A DNA stretch of 64,000 bases from Nitrosomonas sp. (GCF_024282095.1 NZ_JAMWZS010000008.1:6090-70089), one strand, 5' to 3'; counted from the stretch's first letter, positions 18,709 to 33,839 are shown. The notes: generated by a model not told the origin, from the letters alone. A program made the numbers and translations.

Positions 18709-21700
18709 TTATTTGGCTATGCGAAGTGCGTGTATCTTGCTTATTTCTGGTATGAATTTCTTTAAAATGTTTTCGATCTCAGAAACGGGTACCGGTCTGC
18801 TGAAATAATAGCCTTGATAGTGATTGCATTTTTGTGCGATTAATAGATTAAGCTGTTCTGCTGTTTCAATACCTTCTGCAATGACATCCATTTCCAGGCT
18901 GTGTGCCATCGCAATGATAGCGGCGACAATCGTGTGATCGTTCTTATCGGTTACGATATCACGAACGAATGTGCGGTCTATTTTAAGCGTATGAATTGGG
19001 AAACGTTTCAGGTAACTGAGGCTTGAATAGCCAGTACCAAAGTCATCAATTGAGATATGTATGCCCATGTCACTCAAACATTTAAGTGTTTCGACGACTT
19101 TCTCAATGTTATCGATCAGCATACTCTCGGTGATCTCCAGGGTGATATATTTTGCTTCCACCCCGGTTTCATTCAGTATTCGAGAAATATTTTTTGTTAA
19201 ATCTTTATCCCGGAACTGTCTTCCTGATAGATTAATGGCCACCCTTGGAACAGTATAACCCTGATTCTGCCACGTTTTGATTTGTATACAGACTGTTTTC
19301 AGAACCCATTCACCAATCGGAATAATCAGCCCGGTTTCCTCCGCCAAGCTAATGAATTTATCCGGAGAAATCAATTTATGTTCAGGGTGCCGCCAACGCA
19401 GCAGCGCTTCCACACTATAAAGTTGATGATCCGGCATATCCATGACAGGCTGGTAGTATAGAACCAGTTCGTCACGCTCTAGCGCATGGCGTAAATCAAG
19501 ACCGAGAGTGTGCCGCTCGTGAGCTGATTTGTTGAGTTCATCGGTAAAGAACTGATAATTATTGCGTCCATTTTCTTTGGCATAGTACATGGCTACATCA
19601 CTGTTCTTCAATAATGCTTCCGCACTGGTTCCATCATCCGGGAATACCGCAATGCCGATGCTGCCGCCGATATGTAGCTCGTTTTCATGGATATGATAAG
19701 GCTGTATCATCGAATCCAGAATCTTTTGAGCCACTTTTGCAGCATCCAGGGATTCCGCGATGGAATTTAGCACCACAATAAATTCATCGCCGCCTTGACG
19801 CGCAACAGTGTCTTCATTGCGGACACATGCCGACAATCGCTTGGCTACCGCCTTTAGTAAAAGATCACCGATGTCATGGCCTAATGAATCATTGATAGTT
19901 TTGAAATGATCCAAGTCGATAAACAGCACAGCCATTTGCCTTTGATGGCGTGTATCATGGACCAGTGCTTGTTCGATGCGATCTTGCAGCAAGTGCCGAT
20001 TGGGTAAGCCTGTTAACGCGTCATGCGTTGCCATTTGAATAATGCGCTGTTCAGCCTCTTTGCGTTCGTACCAACGACCCAGGTCATGTGCAATGGTGTC
20101 AATCAGATTCTGTTCATAGGGAAATGTGAATGCCAGGTCTTGCAAGTAAGATACCTTTAACAGTCCACATACTTCTCCATTCGACATAATTTTTGCGCTG
20201 ATTTCATTGCGAAGGTTTGCGTGGTATCCCGCTGTAGCGAATTGCTTGTTTCCCAGTTCAATCATGGCAACTGCCATTTCAGGAGAATGCAGGGCCAGGA
20301 TGAGGGATTCCAATATGTTCTGGCATATCTTTTCTGTACTGAGATCCTGTCCCATATAATTTCTGATAATTTGCAGGCAATTACTTTCTTTAAGCCGTTC
20401 GCTCAAGCCACAGTCTTTTTGTTTGTGTGCGGTAATATCGACACTGATCGACAAATAACAATCGGTTTTCCCAGGGGCACTCACAATCGGTATGATTGCT
20501 GAATCCACCCAATAGAGTGTTCCTGCTTTATTGCGGTTACAGATTTCCTGGTGCCAGATTTCACCTTTGGTAATAGTTGCCCACATGTCAACAAAAAATG
20601 ATTCTGGATGTATCTGTGAGTTCAATAAGCGATGATCTTGTTCTATCAGTTCTTCTGCGGAGTAACCACTGATTTCACACAATTTATCATTGACTTGTAT
20701 AATCTTTCCATGGCGATCGATAAAGGCGATTAAAGCAATTCTGCCAATAGCGTTGATATAGGCAGTCAGTTCAGAAGAAATTTTCTCGGCATGGTTTCTA
20801 GCCTGTATTAACTTTCTATGCGTTTTTATCAATGCATTTCTGGATTTAATGGATTTTTGAATCAGCGGCAAGGTCAACCAATACAGAATTGCTATGCCAA
20901 ATGCTACAAATAGCCCCAGATACAGCAAGATCGTTTTAATCTGATCCGTCAGATGATCGTACAACTCGTGTTCATTAATTTTGAGTACAGCGCCTAATCC
21001 ATAGGCAACAGGCGAATGCGCTGCGACAACATCGATTTGCCGGTAGTCCTTGGTGAATTTAATACCGGTTTGCCCTGCTAGCGCATAGTGGATCGGTAAC
21101 GGTTTGTTGTCCATGATGCGCTGCATACGTTTAAAATGATTACCATCAAACCCACGTAGAAAACAGTCCATCTCCAGATTATTTCCTTTCACAGGAGCAC
21201 ACAGCAGAAAGTCACCCGTCATGCCAATCAGGGTGATTTCTGTAAATATTCTGGTGAGAGCGGGTAGCGGTTCCTCCGTTATGATACGGCCAATGAATTT
21301 ATTTTCATCATTCAGAACAGGCATGGAATTACGCAAAATAAATTTCCCATCATCCCACAATAAATTGCTGCGGATATCCGGACCAGTATCTAACTCAATC
21401 ATGAGATCCGAGTAATTGGAATGAAGACCCGATCTGAGTATCAAGTTGCCTGCAGGGCCATAGATACTGACACCTGAGAAGTTATTCTTCAGCATTGTTT
21501 CTGAAGATTTAATTAAATTGATAGCCCCTTCGTCTTTGAGTGCATTCGAATTGGCTTTTTCCAAGCTTTGAACCAGAGAAATACGAGTGGATGCTGTTTT
21601 TGTATGTGATATGGAATGTGTCATCTGATTTTCGATCAGCTTAACCATATTTTCTAATGCCACGTTCAGACCCGAAGTCGTCATCGCTTCAGTCTGTGGT

Positions 21701-21810
21701 TGCATGATCCTATAGACAGAGAAACCTGTTAACAAGATGAGAGTCACCAGTGTCAATCCACTGATGGTAATAATTCTGCGATCATCTTGATTGATAAAAA
21801 AACGAAACAT
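18709..21810 (-). CDS. Membrane-bound PAS-GGDEF-EAL protein (diguanylate cyclase/phosphodiesterase)
   Basis: Two TM segments flanking a periplasmic domain; PAS (FIDRHGKIIQVND...WVDSAI); GGDEF intact with RNED I-site; EALLRW, LEITE, DDFGTGYSSL, AEGIET. Confidence 0.92.
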   Translation of the reverse strand: MFRFFINQDDRRIITISGLTLVTLILLTGFSVYRIMQPQTEAMTTSGLNVALENMVKLIENQMTHSISHTKTASTRISLVQSLEKANSNALKDEGAINLIKSSETMLKNNFSGVSIYGPAGNLILRSGLHSNYSDLMIELDTGPDIRSNLLWDDGKFILRNSMPVLNDENKFIGRIITEEPLPALTRIFTEITLIGMTGDFLLCAPVKGNNLEMDCFLRGFDGNHFKRMQRIMDNKPLPIHYALAGQTGIKFTKDYRQIDVVAAHSPVAYGLGAVLKINEHELYDHLTDQIKTILLYLGLFVAFGIAILYWLTLPLIQKSIKSRNALIKTHRKLIQARNHAEKISSELTAYINAIGRIALIAFIDRHGKIIQVNDKLCEISGYSAEELIEQDHRLLNSQIHPESFFVDMWATITKGEIWHQEICNRNKAGTLYWVDSAIIPIVSAPGKTDCYLSISVDITAHKQKDCGLSERLKESNCLQIIRNYMGQDLSTEKICQNILESLILALHSPEMAVAMIELGNKQFATAGYHANLRNEISAKIMSNGEVCGLLKVSYLQDLAFTFPYEQNLIDTIAHDLGRWYERKEAEQRIIQMATHDALTGLPNRHLLQDRIEQALVHDTRHQRQMAVLFIDLDHFKTINDSLGHDIGDLLLKAVAKRLSACVRNEDTVARQGGDEFIVVLNSIAESLDAAKVAQKILDSMIQPYHIHENELHIGGSIGIAVFPDDGTSAEALLKNSDVAMYYAKENGRNNYQFFTDELNKSAHERHTLGLDLRHALERDELVLYYQPVMDMPDHQLYSVEALLRWRHPEHKLISPDKFISLAEETGLIIPIGEWVLKTVCIQIKTWQNQGYTVPRVAINLSGRQFRDKDLTKNISRILNETGVEAKYITLEITESMLIDNIEKVVETLKCLSDMGIHISIDDFGTGYSSLSYLKRFPIHTLKIDRTFVRDIVTDKNDHTIVAAIIAMAHSLEMDVIAEGIETAEQLNLLIAQKCNHYQGYYFSRPVPVSEIENILKKFIPEISKIHALRIAK

Positions 21811-25066: not shown

Positions 25067-25714
25067 TCACTTTTGTTCCATCGTGCTAATGAATGCATTC
25101 GCTTCATTGATTGATTTTTCCATCGAAGCAACCAGCGCGGATACATCGGATTTGATCGTGCCCAATTCGCCTTTGAGCGAAGCAATGGCGCGGGCATTGA
25201 GGTTGTGTTTGAGGAACATGACCTGATCGTGAAACACGGTAAGGATCGGTTCGATTTTGGCTTCGGCTTGTTTCATCGAAGCGATTAACTGACGGTAATG
25301 CGCTTGCGTGCTATCAAGTTTTTTCTGACTGCTTTGTTTCATCGAGGCGTTGCTGTATTGCGTGATTTCCGTTTTCCATTCGGTGAATAACGCTTCGGAA
25401 ACACTTTCTATGTCCGCAATTCGTGTTTTGACTTCGTCGGCTTTGCTGACGCTGGCTTCATACGCGTCATTAAGCCGTTTATAGGTAGCTTCCAGGTCAC
25501 CGCCGCTAAAGTTGGTGGCGGCAGTAAACTGTTCCAGTGCGGATTTGAATTGCTCCTTGGTTTCTTCCTGCGTATCGCGTGCTTTCTCAACTCGCGACAC
25601 CATCACATCGCGTTTCGGAATGCCGATTTTTTCCAGGCCTTCGAGATACATCGTGGTGCAGGCTGTCAGCATCAGCACTATTGAAAGAATGAATAAACGG
25701 GACAGAGTGTTCAT
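25067..25714 (-). CDS. Lipoprotein, probably DUF2959 family, alpha-helical
   Basis: GGAG SD before ATG 25714; lipobox LTAC; GIPKRDVMVSRVEKARDTQEETKEQFKSALEQF recognised by eye. Confidence 0.7.
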   Translation of the reverse strand: MNTLSRLFILSIVLMLTACTTMYLEGLEKIGIPKRDVMVSRVEKARDTQEETKEQFKSALEQFTAATNFSGGDLEATYKRLNDAYEASVSKADEVKTRIADIESVSEALFTEWKTEITQYSNASMKQSSQKKLDSTQAHYRQLIASMKQAEAKIEPILTVFHDQVMFLKHNLNARAIASLKGELGTIKSDVSALVASMEKSINEANAFISTMEQK

Positions 25715-25778
25715 GTTGTTCTCCATTAAAAGGTCTACAGGTTGTTGATTTTTATTGTCTGCTACGAAGTGGTCGGAT

Positions 25779-27773
25779 TTAACGTAACACACCTCGCCGT
25801 AACAACCGCCAAGCTACTTTCAAACCCCATAAGATGGGATGGCGACGCAACATCGGGGTAATTTCGACGCGCACACCGGTGTGCCGCTCAATTTTCCACG
25901 CCGCATATTCGACGCTATTGTTGAAAGTCAACGTGGCTTTGGATAAGCGCAGGATCGACAGAATTTTTCCCTGCCAACGGCGCAAACGCCAGCGCCACAG
26001 TGCCTGTCGTTGTGTCGCTGGATCGGTCAGGCAGCGGTATTTTCCATTGTCTAGTTTTTCCAATATGCCTTGCAGCATGGGAGCTGCCACTTCTGTCAGG
26101 CGGGTAAATGCACCCAGGTTGGCCTGCGCCAGATGGCGCGCGCGCGTTTCGCGCTCTGCCCGCAATTCAGCGGCATAGGTAAGCATCAGACAGCGGGTCC
26201 AGATTTCTTCCACATCGAATATACCTGCCTCGAGTGCTGCGGCTCCCGATTTTAAAAAAGTGACAACAGCGTGCGCCAGCGAAGCATAAATGTGTTCCCG
26301 CACAGCATCATCACGGCAGTACAGCAACCGTGACGGTTGCGCAAAACGCGCCCAAATATACGGATGAAACCAATGCTGCGCACCACGCCTGAAGTCGTGT
26401 GTTGAAATGACGGCGTATTTGGCGCGTAACGTTCTTCCCTGATGCGGTACTTCCACATAAAAAACATTCGGTGCCAGCCAAGCGTTTAAGTTGGCCAAAT
26501 AGCGCTCGGGATAAGCCTTGTGGTAGCTATCCACGATGACATACAAATCGACAATGCCTTCTTCCAGGCTAATGGCGGAATGCAAGCAGGAGCCATACAG
26601 AATCACGGCATCCAGTGACTCGCCAAAGCGCATGATGAGCACATCCACCAACGGGACGAGATCGGGAGATACCGCCTTGTTGCTTTCCCAAGCGACTTCG
26701 TTGAGTAGCCGGATGGGCAGTTGTTCGGTGGATGTGGCTTTAGTATTAGTCATAGTCTTAACAGCGCCTTCCAGCACTAAGAATGTCACAGGATTGGTGG
26801 CAGTAATCCGTAGCGGTTTGTTGGTACTGGCAGATCGATACAATTCACCGTCCACAATATACTCATCATCCATTTGCAGCGTTAAGGAACGGGTGTTATG
26901 GCTGTAATAACCATCTTTTTCCCGCAGCACTTCGCCGCCGCCTGAAATTAACGGCCATATTGAGCGCCACAAGCGTTTGTGGTGTTGATCGACCAATGTC
27001 ACATGCAGCGGCGCCGGTTCTTTTCCCCAGTAGGGACGAATGTTAAGCAACAGGCAATCCAATGCACTGACCAGTGCGAACAGATAAGTGCCTTGATGAG
27101 TTCGCCCATCGGCTTGCATCATGGTCATTGTGACCGGCGCCCATTCATTCTGATGGCGGCCAGATAGCATACCGATCATCATGCCGGCGAGCGAGCGCAG
27201 CATGATCAAAGAAGTAAAAATGCCGCCGGTAATTCCGATTTGCTTGACCGGGCTGCGCGAGAATTTGACGCCGCGTGCAATCAGTCCGACAGCGAAGAAC
27301 ATGCCATAGATTGCCCCCATTCCTGCCTGCTCGATACGTAGTACGGGACGCTGTACCAGCCTGGGTTCCACTGGCCGTAATAGATAATCACGCAAGCGGC
27401 GCAGGATTTGTTCGGGTTTGCCACGCATTCCCAGATCCAATGGCGTCATATTGGTGGTACCGCCCGGTATGACCATCAGCACAGGCCATTTCGCAGGCGC
27501 CAATGCAGCAAACAAATGACCGAGGATCGCATGCGTCGTACCGTCTCCCGCAACAATCACCAGTAAATCGATATTCGCTCGGAGCAATTGATCAATTGCA
27601 CTTTTGAAAGTGATCGCATCGGTAGCTTCGTAGACCATGATACCGGGTATTTCGCTCAATGCCTGCCGGATAGCCGGTTGACATTTACGTGTCTGGCCTC
27701 CCAGTGGGTTGAGCAGGCAACCAACTTTGGCTGTCCCGCTTCTCAAGCGGTCAATCCGTGCTTGTAATGTCAT
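25779..27773 (-). CDS. Fusion: diacylglycerol/ceramide kinase catalytic domain + nucleotidyltransferase-fold (Tam41-like) domain
   Basis: N-half has AGDGT and IPGGTTNM kinase motifs; C-half, from Met at 26753, has ILYGSCLH...GIVDLYVIVD. Single uninterrupted ORF; likely start ATG 27773. Confidence 0.75.
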   Translation of the reverse strand: MTLQARIDRLRSGTAKVGCLLNPLGGQTRKCQPAIRQALSEIPGIMVYEATDAITFKSAIDQLLRANIDLLVIVAGDGTTHAILGHLFAALAPAKWPVLMVIPGGTTNMTPLDLGMRGKPEQILRRLRDYLLRPVEPRLVQRPVLRIEQAGMGAIYGMFFAVGLIARGVKFSRSPVKQIGITGGIFTSLIMLRSLAGMMIGMLSGRHQNEWAPVTMTMMQADGRTHQGTYLFALVSALDCLLLNIRPYWGKEPAPLHVTLVDQHHKRLWRSIWPLISGGGEVLREKDGYYSHNTRSLTLQMDDEYIVDGELYRSASTNKPLRITATNPVTFLVLEGAVKTMTNTKATSTEQLPIRLLNEVAWESNKAVSPDLVPLVDVLIMRFGESLDAVILYGSCLHSAISLEEGIVDLYVIVDSYHKAYPERYLANLNAWLAPNVFYVEVPHQGRTLRAKYAVISTHDFRRGAQHWFHPYIWARFAQPSRLLYCRDDAVREHIYASLAHAVVTFLKSGAAALEAGIFDVEEIWTRCLMLTYAAELRAERETRARHLAQANLGAFTRLTEVAAPMLQGILEKLDNGKYRCLTDPATQRQALWRWRLRRWQGKILSILRLSKATLTFNNSVEYAAWKIERHTGVRVEITPMLRRHPILWGLKVAWRLLRRGVLR

Positions 27774-27789
27774 TGGGTGTGATAAACGA

Positions 27790-29028
27790 TTAATTGGATG
27801 ATACCGGATAGGGCTTTTTGAGATTGATCGGGGCGCGCGTGAATATTTTGACCGCCCATATTTCCCGGTCACGTGCCGGATCGATATCCTGCAGCCAGGA
27901 TTTCAGTGATCCTTCTTTTTGCTTGGTTTTCCAGCCGGTCATCAAGCGCCATACCAGTATACCCGTTGAGATCAAATGCCATGCAACGACCAACAAAAGC
28001 CCGAAATCCGGTTGGCCGGTCAACCATCCATACGTGAGCAACAAAAGATTCGGATTGCGCCGGGCGGTGATGAGCCGATTGAAGGAATCCCATTTGTGCC
28101 AGATGAACATATCAAAGTGTGCCAACCAGAACTGGAACATGCCTTCGCACAAACGTCCGCCGACATAGCCGATGAACATAAGCCACATCAGTATTCCCAA
28201 GCCGGTAATGGGCGTGAGCGTGCTTGCCAAACCGACTCCCCAAGCCAGATACCAGAGTGGTGGATGAATGATATCCAGACCATGATCCAGTACATCGCCG
28301 AGTCGGCTTGACGTCACGGTAACACGTGCCAGTTTCCCGTCCACGGTGTCGAGAAAGGTCATGAACCATCCCATGAGCAGACCCATGCCAAAAAACCCGA
28401 ACCAGAATGCGACCCCAGCCAACACGGCCAAAACGACGCTGAGATACGTGACATGATTGGGTTGCCAGCCTTCCCGGACACAGTAATGTGTCGCCCAGAA
28501 TGCCGGTACCGGCCAGAGCCATTTGGTGACCAGATCGGTCACGCCCTTATACGACCCGGAAAACAGCTCCTGTTCCAATAACGGGCGATTTTCTTCGCTG
28601 ATGGGCAAAATATAAGGCGGATCTTTCTTTTTCAGATTCTGCTGGAAGTCTATTTGCAGATCCTTCAAACCAATGCGCGGAATGGTCAGCAGCACAAAGC
28701 GATAATTCTGGCTCTTGTTATTGTTGAGATTCCTGAGTAATTGCTGCGCTTGATCGCCATCGGTACGTATCGCGGCGGGACAATTTTCGTCGCTGTATAG
28801 CGCTGTTTTTTTCTCCATGCCGAGCAATGCGGTGAGTACCCGGGCATCAAACAGAAAATTGGCGTTCAGGAATAATACAGCAGCACCGGAAGGAATTTTT
28901 TCTACATCCTCAGTAAGGATGATATGTTCTCTCGTTTTCAACATGCGCTGCAAACGCTCACGGCCGGTTAGTCCCCAAATTTTGGTTTCAATTTCACCGA
29001 AGATATAGATATAGGTTGAAGTCGACAT
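27790..29028 (-). CDS. CDP-alcohol phosphatidyltransferase family protein with N-terminal soluble extension
   Basis: Signature D-x2-DG-x2-AR-x8-G-x3-D-x3-D: FLDTVDGKLARVTVTSSRLGDVLDHGLD; several TM helices. Confidence 0.9.
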   Translation of the reverse strand: MSTSTYIYIFGEIETKIWGLTGRERLQRMLKTREHIILTEDVEKIPSGAAVLFLNANFLFDARVLTALLGMEKKTALYSDENCPAAIRTDGDQAQQLLRNLNNNKSQNYRFVLLTIPRIGLKDLQIDFQQNLKKKDPPYILPISEENRPLLEQELFSGSYKGVTDLVTKWLWPVPAFWATHYCVREGWQPNHVTYLSVVLAVLAGVAFWFGFFGMGLLMGWFMTFLDTVDGKLARVTVTSSRLGDVLDHGLDIIHPPLWYLAWGVGLASTLTPITGLGILMWLMFIGYVGGRLCEGMFQFWLAHFDMFIWHKWDSFNRLITARRNPNLLLLTYGWLTGQPDFGLLLVVAWHLISTGILVWRLMTGWKTKQKEGSLKSWLQDIDPARDREIWAVKIFTRAPINLKKPYPVSSN

Positions 29029-29131
29029 GTGTTGTAGTGATTGGGTTTTGTCTGAGTTATGAAAGATCTGTCATGGATAAAACAAGACTGCGCAATTATA
29101 TAGGCATTGATACTACACTAACCCATTCGTG

Positions 29132-30193
29132 TTAAAAAGTTCTGCGTAACCATAAAGTTGCTAGAATGATCATGGCAAAACCCGGTACCAGTGCGATGAA
29201 TGCCGGGTTTAAACGTAATATCAAACCCGTATTCGCAATAATTTGATCCAGCAGATAAACGGCAATGCCGATCAACGCAGCAAACACCAGTTTATTGCTC
29301 AAGCCGGTGCGAATCGATCCAAATACAAACGGAATCGACAACAGCAGCATTGCAATCGTCATCAGTGCACTGCCCAATTTACGCCATAGCGCCAACGCAT
29401 ACGAATCCGTATCCTGACCGGTGCTGCGCAGGAATTCCACATGCCTTACCAATTCAAGCGGTGACAGGCTTTCGGGTAATTTGGTGAGGGTTAGAATATC
29501 GTCCGGGTTTAGAAACGACGACCAGTTTAATGAAGCAAGACGGGTCGCTGAAATCTCGTCGTCTTTAAATGTTCTGACGATTACATTGTTTAATTCCCAG
29601 CTATCGTCATCTTTGATATCTGCATATTGGGCCAGGGTGTGCGAGAGTAAAAAACCTTCCTGATCTAGTTGCAGGATTTCAATATCGGCTGCTCTTTTGG
29701 CATGCATCATCTGGCCGATGCGCAGAATATTGTGCTCATTGCGCGTCCAGATTCCCAGATTCCTGCCTAATTCGGCACTGAGCTCCAGCGCGATAGCACG
29801 ATTGGTAATGGCTTTTTGCTGCAACTGGGGCGCGACAAATTGCTCTAGGATCGCGACACTCAGCAACAGTAATATACCAACGCTTAAAGGTGCGAGACTG
29901 ATGCGCAGAGGTGAAATTCCGGCAACCCGTAAAGCGATCAATTCCGAATGAACTGCCAGTTTTCCAAGCGCAATCACTGTACCCAATAAAGCAACAAAAG
30001 GTGCAATTTGGATAAGTCTGCGCGGCACCAACATGGCTGTGTATAAAAATGCATCTTTGATGCGATAGGTGCCTTTGCCGACATCTTCCAATTGATCCAA
30101 TAAATCAAAGAAACTGAATAACGGTAACAAAACCGCTGTGGCAATCATGAAACCGATCGCCACTTGATAAACGATATAGCGATAAATGATCAT
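29132..30193 (-). CDS. lptG: LptG-like (YjgP/YjgQ) permease paralog
   Basis: MIIYRYI start overlapping the lptF-like stop (ATGA); SELIALRVAGIS coupling helix; 3 TM + beta-jellyroll + 3 TM layout. Confidence 0.85.
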   Translation of the reverse strand: MIIYRYIVYQVAIGFMIATAVLLPLFSFFDLLDQLEDVGKGTYRIKDAFLYTAMLVPRRLIQIAPFVALLGTVIALGKLAVHSELIALRVAGISPLRISLAPLSVGILLLLSVAILEQFVAPQLQQKAITNRAIALELSAELGRNLGIWTRNEHNILRIGQMMHAKRAADIEILQLDQEGFLLSHTLAQYADIKDDDSWELNNVIVRTFKDDEISATRLASLNWSSFLNPDDILTLTKLPESLSPLELVRHVEFLRSTGQDTDSYALALWRKLGSALMTIAMLLLSIPFVFGSIRTGLSNKLVFAALIGIAVYLLDQIIANTGLILRLNPAFIALVPGFAMIILATLWLRRTF

Positions 30194-31269
30194 GATTGAC
30201 GCGGGAATCGTTTGCGCTTTGATTTCAATGCATAGATGCCAAGCGCGACTAACATCAGCAGATATAACCACCAAACGCCCGGCACGCTACCCACAACGCC
30301 TTGTTCGACCCAGGTTTTGGCCAGTCCGGTCAAATTATAATAGGCGGCGAAAACAAGCGCTGCGATCAGATACGTTCGATCGGTTTTATCGTGGCGCGGC
30401 GTGGTGCGAATAAACGTCACCGCGATTAAAGCCAGCAGGATGGTAGCAAGCGGGCGGGAAATGCGCCATTGCAATTCCGCAATATCCCGCGGCTGATCGG
30501 ATTCCCACAGCGTTCTCGTGGCGGCGGCCTTGCGCCGGTAATTCAGAACAAAGTCATTATCAATGAAATAAGTCATGTTCCTGAACTGAATGACCTCATC
30601 AATGCTTGCTGCATTGGTTAATTGATATACCACACCCTCGGATAATTGAATATGCGGTCTCAGTTCTTCCGCTGTTGGCTGAATCTGGCGAGCTTGCCTG
30701 GCAATGACGATTTCACTGCTGTCCGGCTTCTTGATATAGTGAAAAATATTCTGCATTTGCTGATCAACATCACTTTTGCTGCGCACATAGACCACCCTGC
30801 CGGTCTTTTCACTGCCATAAAAACGCCCGGCCTGAAAGCGGTTGGTATTTAAGTCCGCTTCAGCCTGCGCGTCCAATATGTAACTTTCCGCATAAGCCCA
30901 AGGCCGTACATACGATGACAGCATGCCGCTGGCGATACCAACCGGTATTGCCACAGTCAGTACGGTAAGGACAATGCGCGTACCACTGACGCCGACAGAG
31001 CGGATTACATTCAATTCCTGATCTTTGTTGAGTCTGCCCAGACCGATAATGACAGAAATATAGAGTGCAATAGGAATGAGTACTTCCAGTGCAATCAGCG
31101 TTTTTAGAAATACCAGTTTGAGCAGTGCGGCGATGCCCAATGTTTCGGTAACAGCGCCAGCCAAAAGCCGGGCGCTGCTGAAGCTGGCGAATAAGCCAAC
31201 CAGAATCAAAATGACTACCGTGAAGGGCAGCGATATTTCGCGCGCGATGTACCGCTCAATTAATTTCAT
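30190..31269 (-). CDS. lptF: LptF-like (YjgP/YjgQ) permease paralog
   Basis: MKLIERYIAREI, LGRLNKDQELNVIRSVGVS, AELQWRISRPL. Confidence 0.85.
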   Translation of the reverse strand: MKLIERYIAREISLPFTVVILILVGLFASFSSARLLAGAVTETLGIAALLKLVFLKTLIALEVLIPIALYISVIIGLGRLNKDQELNVIRSVGVSGTRIVLTVLTVAIPVGIASGMLSSYVRPWAYAESYILDAQAEADLNTNRFQAGRFYGSEKTGRVVYVRSKSDVDQQMQNIFHYIKKPDSSEIVIARQARQIQPTAEELRPHIQLSEGVVYQLTNAASIDEVIQFRNMTYFIDNDFVLNYRRKAAATRTLWESDQPRDIAELQWRISRPLATILLALIAVTFIRTTPRHDKTDRTYLIAALVFAAYYNLTGLAKTWVEQGVVGSVPGVWWLYLLMLVALGIYALKSKRKRFPRQS

Positions 31270-32078
31270 ATATCGGTTTTGAGTATCGACTCAGCAAGCA
31301 CTAAGTCTTCTACTTTATCAACATCTACGCCAGCACGAGGATTATCAAGCACAACGGCCTGTATTTTTACCCCTGATTTTTCTGATACGGCGGCTAATGC
31401 CTGCTGTAGTGTGAGCGACCCAAACAAATAAGACAGTACCATTTTGAATCCAAGCACTTGTCCGATCAAGCGCCAGGGACGTTTGCGCAGCTCTTCAGCT
31501 TGCCGCCAGAATCCGACCAGCATCCGCCCCTGAGGATTGAACATGAACAGATTGCAGCCGCAGAATCCACCGTCGCGCAGCCGTATGACGGTGCGTTTTG
31601 AACCTGGAAATGCGGCGGCGATGTCTTGCTGCCTGATCGTGCCAACAGCAGCATCACACTGCGTTGCCAGGGCGTCGTGTAAAAAACGTTGCACGATATC
31701 GGGTGTGAGCAAGGCATGATCGGCAGTAGTCAATAATACCGGCGTATCGCTCGGTACATGACTGAGACCGCTTTCAGCGCTGCGACTGGGCGAATCCAGA
31801 TTCGGCAGCCAGGTTACTTGTCCGGATGCGATCCGTTGTTTTAATTCCGGACAATGCAGGAGCAAGGATTCGGAAGGGCCGCAGAGAGTAATCGAGGTAA
31901 TCAGATCGCAAGCTGCCAGCGCATCCACAACACGGATAACCATCGGAACGCCGCCAACAGGTGCAAAGGCTTTGCAGGCTGCGCCGGTGTGTTGCGTGAT
32001 GGGATCTTTATTGGTGCGGTCAGCAGCCAGAACCAGTGCGGCGAAACGCTGCGGCGTTGGATAGGATTCAGCGCTCAC
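31266..32078 (-). CDS. Nucleotidyltransferase (MobA-like NTP transferase) family protein
   Basis: ALVLAADR...CKAFAPVGGVPM, LLTTADHALL, DVDKVEDL; GTG start overlaps the upstream TGA (GTGA). Confidence 0.8.
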   Translation of the reverse strand: MSAESYPTPQRFAALVLAADRTNKDPITQHTGAACKAFAPVGGVPMVIRVVDALAACDLITSITLCGPSESLLLHCPELKQRIASGQVTWLPNLDSPSRSAESGLSHVPSDTPVLLTTADHALLTPDIVQRFLHDALATQCDAAVGTIRQQDIAAAFPGSKRTVIRLRDGGFCGCNLFMFNPQGRMLVGFWRQAEELRKRPWRLIGQVLGFKMVLSYLFGSLTLQQALAAVSEKSGVKIQAVVLDNPRAGVDVDKVEDLVLAESILKTDI

Positions 32079-33226
32079 AATGTTTTTCCATAAATACGAT
32101 AGCGTTTGTATTGTTCGCTGCCAATGCTGTCAAGGATACTGCGCATGGCGACGTTGTCTTCCAGTATCCATGACATTTCAACTTCCTGGATGCCGCGCGC
32201 GATTCCCGCTTGCCGTGGCGCATCAATGACCAGGCAAGCCAATGCCAGACCCAGTGGCGTATTGTGAAATTGTTTACGTACGCCCATCAGCGGTATGCGG
32301 CCTGTGCGGATCTGATGATTTCTGATTCTGTTGACCAGTTTGAGCCAGCCAAATGGAAACAGGCTACCGTTTAATTCAGTCAAGACTTCATTGAGATTAG
32401 GCAATCCCACCATGAATGCTGAAGGCTTGCCATCGACTTCGGCGACTTGAATGAATTCATCGGGCAACAACAAACGCAGACTGCTGCCCAGTTCAGCAAA
32501 TTCTTCTCGTGTGAAGGGGATGAATCCCCAATTTTCAGACCAGGCATCGTTAAAAATATCCCGCAGCATTTCCATTTCCGCATCGAATTGATTGCGGTTC
32601 AGTGTACGTAATTTTATTTTTGGAGAAAATCGATTGATCAATATCTGCATGACACGCGGTATTTCAAAATCGACTCTGACTTTATAGGCCAGCAAATCTT
32701 TTACCGGCTGATACCCTTGTTCTTCCAGCAAGCGTCCATACCAACGCGGTGAGTGGGGCATCATGATGACCGGCGGCGTGTCGAATCCATCGACCAGAAT
32801 GCCGCACTCCTGATTGATGGAAAGGTTGAATGGCCCGCTGACTCGGCGGATTTGCCGGGATGCCAGCCATGCTTCTGCATTTAGCATCAGTGCAGCACAT
32901 ACTTCTGCGTCGTCGATGCATTCGAACAGGCCAAAATGACCGCTGTCTGTACCGTAGCGCTCTTGGTGCAAGGAATCGATCTGCGCACTGATGCGTCCAA
33001 CCGCTTGGCCATTTTGAAAGGCTACCCAGGCTTGCCATTCGCCATGTTTAAAAAAAGGATTGAAACGGGAAAAGTGAAAGCGCCGCTCCAAACGTAAAGG
33101 CGGTACCCACAACGGATCATCGGCATAAACATGCCAAGGTACGTCAATGAATTTGCCCATATCACGATAAGACATGACCGGACGCACCGTTACTTTGGAA
33201 TTGCCCGGTTTATCGTGTTTATTCAT
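32075..33226 (-). CDS. GNAT-fold N-acyltransferase, bacterial ceramide synthase (bCerS)-like
   Basis: YADDPLWVPPL, GRISAQID, GHFGLFECIDD, GPFNLSINQECGILVDGF, FNDAWSENWGF, EMSWILEDN; size and neighbourhood match the bCerS family as recalled. Confidence 0.75.
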   Translation of the reverse strand: MNKHDKPGNSKVTVRPVMSYRDMGKFIDVPWHVYADDPLWVPPLRLERRFHFSRFNPFFKHGEWQAWVAFQNGQAVGRISAQIDSLHQERYGTDSGHFGLFECIDDAEVCAALMLNAEAWLASRQIRRVSGPFNLSINQECGILVDGFDTPPVIMMPHSPRWYGRLLEEQGYQPVKDLLAYKVRVDFEIPRVMQILINRFSPKIKLRTLNRNQFDAEMEMLRDIFNDAWSENWGFIPFTREEFAELGSSLRLLLPDEFIQVAEVDGKPSAFMVGLPNLNEVLTELNGSLFPFGWLKLVNRIRNHQIRTGRIPLMGVRKQFHNTPLGLALACLVIDAPRQAGIARGIQEVEMSWILEDNVAMRSILDSIGSEQYKRYRIYGKTL

Positions 33227-33353: not shown

Positions 33354-33839
33354 TTATAAATTAGTATGTTTGAGTAAATTCGATACCAATCGATGAAAAG
33401 TTTCTTTGGGATCCGGTTCCTTATTTGTGGATTGTTTGGTAGGCGCAGCATGATCGGATGCTGAAGGTTGTTCAGCAACAGCACACTTCTCATCAGTGAT
33501 ATTCCGGCAGAAATCACAAAAATTATTCCAATCCGTGTTGTAACTCAGCAGGCGATCCTGTGGAATGAATACGCGCAAAACCTCAAAGTTTTGCTGCATT
33601 TCGGGTAGACGAGAGCACAGGTAAGTATTGATATTTCTGGGCCAGCCTTTATGGGTTGGATACAGAAGCTCCAATTGTGTTTCAATGGTATAGCGAAAAT
33701 TATCAATCGCATTGGCGCGGCGTTTGCGATTAAGAATTTCAACAAATACAGCCACTAACCCCAAAAAGCCAAACAAAACAAATGGCCATAACGGTACAGT
33801 CTCAAAATATCCGGTGATTTGATTAATATTTTCGTCCAA
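33354..33839 (-). CDS. Hypothetical protein with a single N-terminal TM helix
   Basis: 161-aa ORF, hydrophobic LWPFVLFGFLGLVAVFVEIL followed by RKRR; no competing long ORF. Confidence 0.7.
   Translation of the reverse strand: MDENINQITGYFETVPLWPFVLFGFLGLVAVFVEILNRKRRANAIDNFRYTIETQLELLYPTHKGWPRNINTYLCSRLPEMQQNFEVLRVFIPQDRLLSYNTDWNNFCDFCRNITDEKCAVAEQPSASDHAAPTKQSTNKEPDPKETFHRLVSNLLKHTNL

Follow-up and report, generated by a model that had tools for sequence, protein, structure and literature searches.

A Nitrosomonas sphingolipid gene cluster with the only LptFG pair of its genome: a candidate exporter in a genus without detectable LpxC

Introduction

Caulobacter crescentus carries enzymes for anionic sphingolipids in the region CC_1152-CC_1168, where a second LptFG pair (LptF2/G2) is encoded beside the N-acyltransferase bCerS, and it also makes lipopolysaccharide (LPS) and keeps a separate canonical LptFG. 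LptF2/G2 was shown to be required for sphingolipid transport and to bind a single LptB, and it is only for Caulobacter that loss of this pair was shown to be lethal in a manner depending on sphingolipid synthesis (bioRxiv 10.64898/2026.04.12.717747). Sphingomonas (e.g., S. wittichii) has no LPS, encodes its sole LptFG in the sphingolipid region and keeps the whole Lpt system (bioRxiv 10.64898/2026.04.12.717747, in which Nitrosomonas is not mentioned). Here we describe a cluster of seven minus-strand genes at positions 25067-33226 of a 64,000-nucleotide stretch of DNA (the window) from Nitrosomonas sp. (GCF_024282095.1, NZ_JAMWZS010000008.1:6090-70089), in which an LptFG pair is likewise encoded beside bCerS, together with the same enzyme families as in Caulobacter. 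The genome that holds the window (G000) is 2.8 Mb in size and 99.97% complete.

The genus is already known to have this cluster, and the window holds a further member of the published system: Neut_1100-Neut_1106 of Nitrosomonas eutropha C91 have the same gene order (Olea-Ozuna et al., 2024, PLoS Pathog, PMC11324152, Fig 7, Table S2D). In that study the lptFG genes of N. eutropha are treated as counterparts of the "second versions" LptF2/G2, whereas in G000 they are the only pair. We consider it likely that the Nitrosomonas operon encodes the exporter of an anionic sphingolipid along with the later reactions of its synthesis, and that an LPS-free cell sends a lipid of the ceramide phosphoglycerate (CPG) type through an acquired LptFG.

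A Single LptFG Pair Without Lipid A Genes

The initial annotation, by its comparison with Caulobacter, implied that lptF and lptG of the cluster are an accessory pair. They are not extra copies: a Pfam search of the whole genome returned only two PF03739 (LptF_LptG) genes, both in the window. Among 24 further genomes of the genus, each complete one has exactly one adjacent lptFG pair, and the extra lptFG matches in draft genomes are fragments or below threshold. The bCerS gene always lies just upstream of lptFG in the genus.

LpxC was not detected with the PF03331 hidden Markov model (HMM) in any of the 25 Nitrosomonas genomes, closed ones included, while it is present in 15 of 16 sister families. 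In G000, no match to LpxA, LpxB, LpxC, LpxD, or WaaA was obtained by tblastn with E. coli probes, although probes for LptB and MsbA worked and the LpxC probe matches relatives at 55-60% identity. It was noted earlier for N. europaea that, of the lipid A genes, only lpxK was found, which was ascribed to genome reduction (Opiyo et al., 2010, PMC3087551).

The remainder of the Lpt machine is retained. LptB (TIGR04406, 391 bits against a cut-off of 240), LptC (TIGR04409, 137 against 38), and LptA (TIGR03002, 151 against 72) are encoded in the usual order lptC-lptA-lptB-rpoN, and LptD is present (E = 1e-115 to 1e-120), split over two overlapping contig ends. LptE was not found in G000 by a weak probe, and no further search for it was made. 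As in the E. coli LptB2FGC-LptA-LptDE system, the Nitrosomonas LptF, LptG, LptB, LptC, and LptA pass the NCBIfam equivalog cut-offs and LptD is there; the difference from E. coli is that Nitrosomonas, lacking LpxC and without a match to LpxA, LpxB, LpxD, or WaaA, could not make the LPS substrate. Because the genus has no LpxC and G000 has no detectable LpxA, LpxB, LpxD, or WaaA, the sphingolipid is likely what the Lpt machine carries and the chief anionic lipid of the outer leaflet, by analogy with Sphingomonas and Caulobacter, and probably takes the place of LPS in the outer membrane.

Two genes related to LPS synthesis do occur in G000. One (G000:C28:8456-9463), beside neither msbA nor kdsB, encodes an LpxK homologue (TIGR00682, 150 bits against a cut-off of 92) with the P-loop DSISIDDGGKTP, where that of E. 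coli LpxK is GNLTAGGNGKTP; it may act on another lipid substrate or be in decay. The other (G000:C42:31079-31828) encodes a homologue of the KdsB-type CMP-Kdo synthetase (NF009905, 313 bits against 255), which may serve a capsule or another glycoconjugate.

Gene Order and Comparison With N. eutropha and Caulobacter

The genes of the cluster and the one directly upstream of it, all on the minus strand, are as follows:

33354..33839, minus strand: conserved 161-aa protein, predicted to have one membrane helix; adjoins cerS on its upstream side in the same orientation; no Pfam/NCBIfam match
32075..33226, minus strand: bCerS (putative bacterial ceramide synthase), 383 aa, tandem-GNAT N-acyltransferase, at the position of Neut_1100; no Pfam/NCBIfam match
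31266..32078, minus strand: MobA/CofC-like nucleotidyltransferase, 270 aa, PF12804 (NTP_transf_3), at the position of Neut_1101
30190..31269, minus strand: LptF, 359 aa (TIGR04407, 305 bits against a cut-off of 230)
29132..30193, minus strand: LptG, 353 aa from the ATG at 30193 (TIGR04408, 313 bits against a cut-off of 240)
27790..29028, minus strand: CpgA-like CDP-alcohol phosphotransferase, 412 aa, with an extra N-terminal cytoplasmic domain, PF01066
25779..27773, minus strand: fusion protein of 664 aa, with a CpgB-like lipid kinase (putatively for ceramide) joined to a CpgC-like part that is a candidate for the Tam41 fold; DAGK_cat and a weak Tam41_Mmp37 match
25067..25726, minus strand: DUF2959 lipoprotein, conserved last gene (PF11172, 276 bits), signal peptide and lipobox LMLTAC

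Reading the window directly bore out the layout given by the initial annotation, namely six co-oriented genes followed by a lipoprotein gene whose signal peptide ends in the lipobox, with the first four joined by overlaps of four bases (GTGA at 32075-32078, ATGA at 31266-31269, and ATGA at 30190-30193). The overlaps are confined to these four genes; gaps of 103 nt between lptG and cpgA and of 16 nt between cpgA and the fusion gene follow. In an uncultured Nitrosomonas (a 94% relative), a 2.1-kb insertion (L100:14092-16259) lies between lptG and cpgA, where the window has the 103-nt gap. Starts were placed from public gene calls and profile alignments; the longest open reading frames (ORFs) overextend two of them, those of lptG (placed at 30193) and the kinase fusion (placed at 27773).

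The unit may begin with the gene for the 161-aa protein, 127 nt from cerS; its homologues, with 38-95% identity, also lie upstream of cerS in the Nitrosomonas loci L100-L104, L111, and L113. At the other end, the DUF2959 gene is kept downstream of the Tam41-like gene in L100, L103, L111, L113, and L119.

The order cerS, CC_1153-like gene, lptF, lptG, cpgA, cpgB, cpgC is the same as in N. eutropha. In the published comparison with Caulobacter, Neut_1100 corresponds to CerS (CC_1154, 41% identity), Neut_1101 to CC_1153 (33%), Neut_1102/1103 weakly to LptF2/LptG2 (E = 1e-9 and 6e-15), Neut_1104 to CpgA (CC_1159, 41%), Neut_1105 to CpgB (25%), and Neut_1106 to CpgC (CC_1161, 32%), and N. eutropha was predicted to make CPG and CPG2 (PMC11324152). 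Elsewhere in that genome lie Neut_0458-0461 (aasR, cerR, acpR, spt) and Neut_0267/0268 (HIT and CpgD, the latter 44% identical to its counterpart) (PMC11324152); the spt operon and the cpgD/HIT pair likewise occupy separate sites in G000. One difference is that a single 664-aa protein of the window combines the kinase with the Tam41-like part, for which N. eutropha has two genes, Neut_1105 and Neut_1106. Caulobacter also has LptC2, a flippase candidate, and CC_1158, none of which is reported in Nitrosomonas; an ortholog of CC_1158, in particular, was not reported in N. eutropha (PMC11324152). We found no statement in the same paper that the lptFG genes of N. eutropha are its sole pair or that lipid A genes are absent.

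Ceramide Synthesis

The first gene of the cluster was initially annotated as a bCerS-like GNAT protein, and both its predicted fold and its relatives agree with this. The AlphaFold2 (AF2) model (predicted local distance difference test, pLDDT, 91.4) is a tandem GNAT, with 7q3a, 5kf1, 2wpw, and MshD as top Foldseek matches; the best structural matches are themselves acyltransferases of the tandem-GNAT type. Its homologues number 7837 (the Nitrosomonas records call them N-acetyltransferase), the closest being from Nitrosomonas (97% identity in strain Nm84 and 86% in N. oligotropha Nm45). Among the genomes sampled, 32 of 401 from the phylum and 24 of 400 from the class encode a full-length homologue. 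Those in sphingolipid loci of alpha- and gammaproteobacteria are full length with 38-56% identity, the alphaproteobacterial ones adjoining lptFG being full length at 38-47%, so that the best matches lead to sphingolipid families and not away from them. The link of the window bCerS to CC_1154 itself is by transitivity through Neut_1100 (41%, 5e-105).

The initial annotation called for a search of the rest of the genome for spt, a dedicated acyl carrier protein (ACP), and cerR, and all of these exist as an aasR-cerR-acpR-spt operon on contig C79, i.e., on a different contig from the window cluster. A serine palmitoyltransferase is thus present: Spt (G000:C79:9153-10340) matches NF047599 (SerpalmtaseBetaP equivalog) with 577 bits against a cut-off of 500, and directly upstream on the same strand are an 84-aa PP-binding ACP, a 608-aa AMP-binding protein, and a 306-aa reductase of the Epimerase family.

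Some further genes near this operon or of related family were noted. A 222-aa ORF without a family match overlaps the end of spt, and G000:C79:3787-6088 (L014), roughly 3 kb away from the operon, has hopanoid side-chain genes for an HpnH-like radical SAM/DUF3463 protein and a glycosyltransferase of family 2. A second alpha-oxoamine synthase of 462 aa with an N-terminal extension of about 60 residues (G000:C70:14542-15576) reaches no NCBIfam cut-off, its highest score being that for BioF (351 bits against 426); the genome encodes a true BioF separately.

Head-Group Enzymes and the Nature of the Product

The nucleotidyltransferase of the operon, which the initial annotation listed simply as a nucleoside triphosphate transferase, is a MobA-like protein of the NTP_transf_3 family (PF12804, 57 bits against a cut-off of 27; PDB 2dpw at 6.5e-21). 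Judging from sequence and position, it is the counterpart of CC_1153 and not of CpgD. In Caulobacter, CC_1153 is needed for CPG2. The CpgD-like candidate is instead a 255-aa nucleotidyltransferase of the PF00483 type, which is followed by a HIT-like ORF on C79 (G000:C79:33834-35058), about 24 kb beyond the spt operon; this pair mirrors Neut_0268/Neut_0267, and its curated matches are generic sugar-phosphate nucleotidyltransferases. Directly after it, G000:C79:35091-36167 encodes a membrane protein that has histidine boxes and resembles fatty-acid desaturases/hydroxylases; it is a candidate for hydroxylating the acyl chain of ceramide and may be compared with Caulobacter CC_0202.

The CDP-alcohol phosphotransferase (CDP-OH_P_transf, PF01066, 31.4 bits against a cut-off of 22) has an intact catalytic motif D-x2-DG-x2-AR-x8-G-x3-D-x3-D, which reads DTVDGKLAR-x8-GDVLDHGLD. 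In the fusion protein, the kinase region (residues 52-168 of the 697-aa longest ORF) matches DAGK_cat with 44.7 bits against a cut-off of 23.6 and has the AGDGT motif, from which a preference for ceramide cannot be read. Residues 452-592 of the same ORF match Tam41_Mmp37 (PF09139) with 21 bits (cut-off 24, E = 2.4e-4); the match to PDB 6ig2 is weak (E = 0.89), and the position and the published assignment of Neut_1106 agree with CpgC. Neither bCerS nor any of CpgA-D of Caulobacter is in the PDB.

The fused form is found in 36 protein clusters, of which all but a few are from Nitrosomonas, while in N. oligotropha Nm45, N. communis, and others the two halves are split by one or more stop codons. 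An assembly error was considered as the cause of the fusion and was rejected, as numerous isolates and independent assemblies show the same fusion. It is a recent, polymorphic stop-loss fusion of the enzymes predicted for two consecutive steps.

The enzymatic activities and the head-group chemistry are predicted from Caulobacter genetics and from the biochemistry of CpgB and CpgD (PMC11324152, PMC12275187). At the inner membrane, Spt, AcpR, AasR, CerR, and bCerS would produce ceramide, which the kinase half of the 664-aa fusion would phosphorylate, as CpgB does in Caulobacter. The Tam41-like half, the CDP-alcohol phosphotransferase, the MobA-like nucleotidyltransferase, and the unlinked CpgD-like enzyme would then add one or two head groups of the phosphoglycerate type.

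It is also conceivable that the product is not ceramide phosphoglycerate, and that it carries another anionic head group (phosphoinositol, phosphoglycerol, or a sugar phosphate) or that the kinase acts on diacylglycerol. The best curated matches of the phosphotransferase are archaetidylinositol-phosphate and phosphatidylinositol-phosphate (PIP) synthases, both far below their cut-offs; the kinase is only a generic member of DAGK_cat; no counterpart of CC_1158 is reported in N. eutropha; and the KdsB-like CMP-sugar synthase and the LpxK-like kinase persist in the absence of lipid A. However, the whole enzyme set occurs together as in Caulobacter, and the N. eutropha identities for CpgA (41%), CpgD (44%), CC_1153 (33%), and CpgC (32%) are accompanied by high coverage. 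We therefore regard a different product as unlikely and keep a lipid of the ceramide phosphoglycerate type as the predicted one.

Origin of the LptFG Pair

The bCerS gene occurs in none of 16 other families of the GTDB order to which Nitrosomonas belongs. Nitrosospira has it, in the same gene order. This gene order is kept across Nitrosomonas, Nitrosospira, and several gammaproteobacteria far beyond chance, and Pseudomonas asuensis, Azorhizophilus paspali, and Salinisphaera have in common the order cerS-nucleotidyltransferase gene-lptF-lptG-cpgA-kinase gene-Tam41 gene. The loci compared were the 80 returned by a contig scan, among which were neither Caulobacter nor N. eutropha.

Trees of LptF and LptG were made from 9 Nitrosomonas genomes, 12 other families of the order, 13 bCerS-bearing alphaproteobacterial genomes, and 16 further bCerS-containing genomes of the GTDB class Gammaproteobacteria, which includes the betaproteobacteria. 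In most genomes of this class with a Nitrosomonas-like bCerS (about 47-56% identity), a second lptFG pair occurs away from the one that adjoins bCerS. In the bootstrapped LptF, LptG, and concatenated trees, Nitrosomonas falls inside a 23-member clade of CerS-linked LptFG with support 100/100, as sister to the linked copies of two genomes, G693 and G705 (Arhodomonas aquaeolei), with support 100/99, while the LptFG of the 12 sister families form their own clade (100/100). Forcing Nitrosomonas to group with its own order changed the log-likelihood by -109 and -94 units, with p = 2.9e-7 (LptF) and 1.1e-5 (LptG) in the approximately unbiased (AU) test. G693 and G705 also carry some of the most similar bCerS proteins. 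These trees are most simply explained by horizontal gain of the entire cassette with its exporter from a gammaproteobacterium-like donor, followed by loss of the native lptFG.

One may suppose instead that lptFG is a vertically inherited housekeeping pair around which sphingolipid genes chanced to be inserted, that its odd place in the tree results from fast evolution or long-branch attraction, and that it handles another envelope lipid while the sphingolipid takes another route to the outer membrane. Both proteins do pass the NCBIfam LptF/LptG equivalog cut-offs, the Nitrosomonas stem branch is long (0.6-0.85), and many rows of the alignments have an unusual amino-acid composition. This explanation is nevertheless rather improbable, since the three trees agree with support of 99-100 and the AU tests reject the vertical topology; in addition, the nearest LptFG relatives have similar bCerS proteins, the shared gene order fits transfer as one unit, and lptFG is translationally coupled to the synthesis genes. 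A charge-reversed patch on the first transmembrane segment (TM1) of LptG was considered as a mark of the lineage and dropped, as the ED/DD before the GxGxY turn in Nitrosomonas is not clearly unlike native betaproteobacterial LptG.

The bCerS-linked LptFG of alphaproteobacteria form a separate, strongly supported clade, to which belong Caulobacter-like genomes, with two pairs each, as well as sphingomonad-like ones, with a single pair; Caulobacter itself was not placed. The separateness of this clade and the gamma/Nitrosomonas one implies that LptFG became associated with sphingolipid genes, or that this association diversified, separately in the alphaproteobacterial and the Nitrosomonas/gammaproteobacterial types. 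In one alphaproteobacterial locus (L056, G420:C15:62650-65400), the bCerS-linked LptF and LptG domains lie in one 760-aa frame, which may be an LptF-LptG fusion.

Comparison With Other bCerS-Containing Genomes

Nitrosomonas resembles Sphingomonas in having no LpxC, a single lptFG pair beside bCerS, and a retained Lpt bridge. Consistent with the published pattern, all nine genomes of family f63, sphingomonad-like by pattern, are without LpxC and have linked lptFG only. Sphingomonas differs from Nitrosomonas in belonging to a different proteobacterial class and LptFG clade and in having glycosyl (glucuronosyl ceramide) head groups, while Nitrosomonas has the phosphoglycerate-type enzyme set and would have reached this state independently, via the gammaproteobacterial type of cluster.

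Outside Nitrosomonas, all sampled bCerS genomes of the class Gammaproteobacteria have LpxC, except a 62%-complete draft (G561). Three of them (G631, G783, and G594) have LpxC and only the cluster-type lptFG pair, so that loss of the native pair does not require loss of LPS; their single LptFG may serve both LPS and the sphingolipid. The idea that "linked LptFG only" predicts "no LpxC" was rejected on account of the same three genomes.

That a phosphosphingolipid coexists with LPS in Nitrosomonas, with lptF and lptG as an accessory second pair, is the arrangement of Caulobacter (PMC11324152) and would match most of the sampled gammaproteobacteria with a Nitrosomonas-like bCerS, which have two lptFG pairs and LpxC, but it is already contradicted by the two PF03739 genes of G000, the single adjacent pair of the complete genomes, and the absence of LpxC from 25 of 25 genomes, and is thus very improbable indeed.

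Proposed Export Route

In the route that we propose, LptF and LptG, translationally coupled to the synthesis genes, would pair with the LptB of the cell, and the resulting LptB2FG would extract the sphingolipid and pass it to LptC-LptA-LptD, by analogy with Caulobacter and Sphingomonas. The sphingolipid cluster, gained horizontally, would have brought its own lptFG genes, and these would have displaced the native pair of betaproteobacterial type. Three steps would be involved, in any order: gain of the gammaproteobacterial cluster with its LptFG, loss of the native LptFG, and loss of the Raetz pathway. The initial annotation had proposed that a compact, rearranged version of the Caulobacter system makes and exports a charged phosphosphingolipid; the gene set and gene order support this, and what has to be changed is the role of the exporter, which is the sole pair and not an accessory one.

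Several points weigh against this interpretation. The Caulobacter-like LptF2/G2 belong to the alphaproteobacterial clade, and the transport data therefore apply to Nitrosomonas by analogy only. Cluster-type LptFG presumably carries LPS in G631, G783, and G594, and membership of the clade gives no cargo specificity. Identities between N. eutropha and Caulobacter are low in the published table, with 25% for the kinase and 24-33% for LptFG (PMC11324152), and the Tam41-like match is under the Pfam cut-off. Among the lipid A genes, a curated HMM was used for LpxC only, and the absence of LpxA, LpxB, LpxD, and WaaA is that of tblastn matches to E. coli sequences; homologues of LpxK and KdsB persist in G000. 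Finally, we found no report of Nitrosomonas sphingolipids in the searchable literature.

Flanking Genes

The genes neighbouring the cluster are housekeeping genes (ispA, dxs, folE2, nadC, clpB, dapA, and bamC), and no traces of mobile elements were seen in its flanks. Scans for promoters and terminators gave counts equal to those of shuffled sequence and did not resolve the operon boundaries. Adjoining clpB, a 1033-aa PAS-GGDEF-EAL protein is encoded at 18709-21810 of the window on the minus strand, which belongs to ordinary cyclic di-GMP (c-di-GMP) signalling and is unrelated to the cluster.

Significance

The lack of lipid A genes was already noted for N. europaea in 2010, and the sphingolipid gene set was described in 2024; what is added here is the sole LptFG pair and the evidence that it was acquired horizontally. 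The three facts about the genus, namely no lipid A genes, a full anionic-sphingolipid set, and a sole LptFG of the cluster type, have not been combined in the searchable papers. Taken together, they suggest that Nitrosomonas forms a second lineage, of independent origin, that has no LPS and whose outer membrane is built with sphingolipid. It is quite possible, though we say so with less confidence than for the operon itself, that the betaproteobacterial ammonia oxidisers (Nitrosomonas and probably Nitrosospira) are LPS-free with a sphingolipid of the ceramide phosphoglycerate type as the anionic lipid of the outer leaflet, independently of Sphingomonas, and use LptB, LptC, LptA, and LptD solely for the sphingolipid.

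If this is true, globally important nitrifiers would have an endotoxin-free, sphingolipid-based outer membrane, and would provide, beside Sphingomonas, a second independent natural case of an Lpt machine carrying only sphingolipid. Such a case would help to explain what sets the choice of Lpt cargo and how LPS can be lost, and would bear on the envelope permeability, the polymyxin-type sensitivity, and the lipid biomarkers of ammonia oxidisers.

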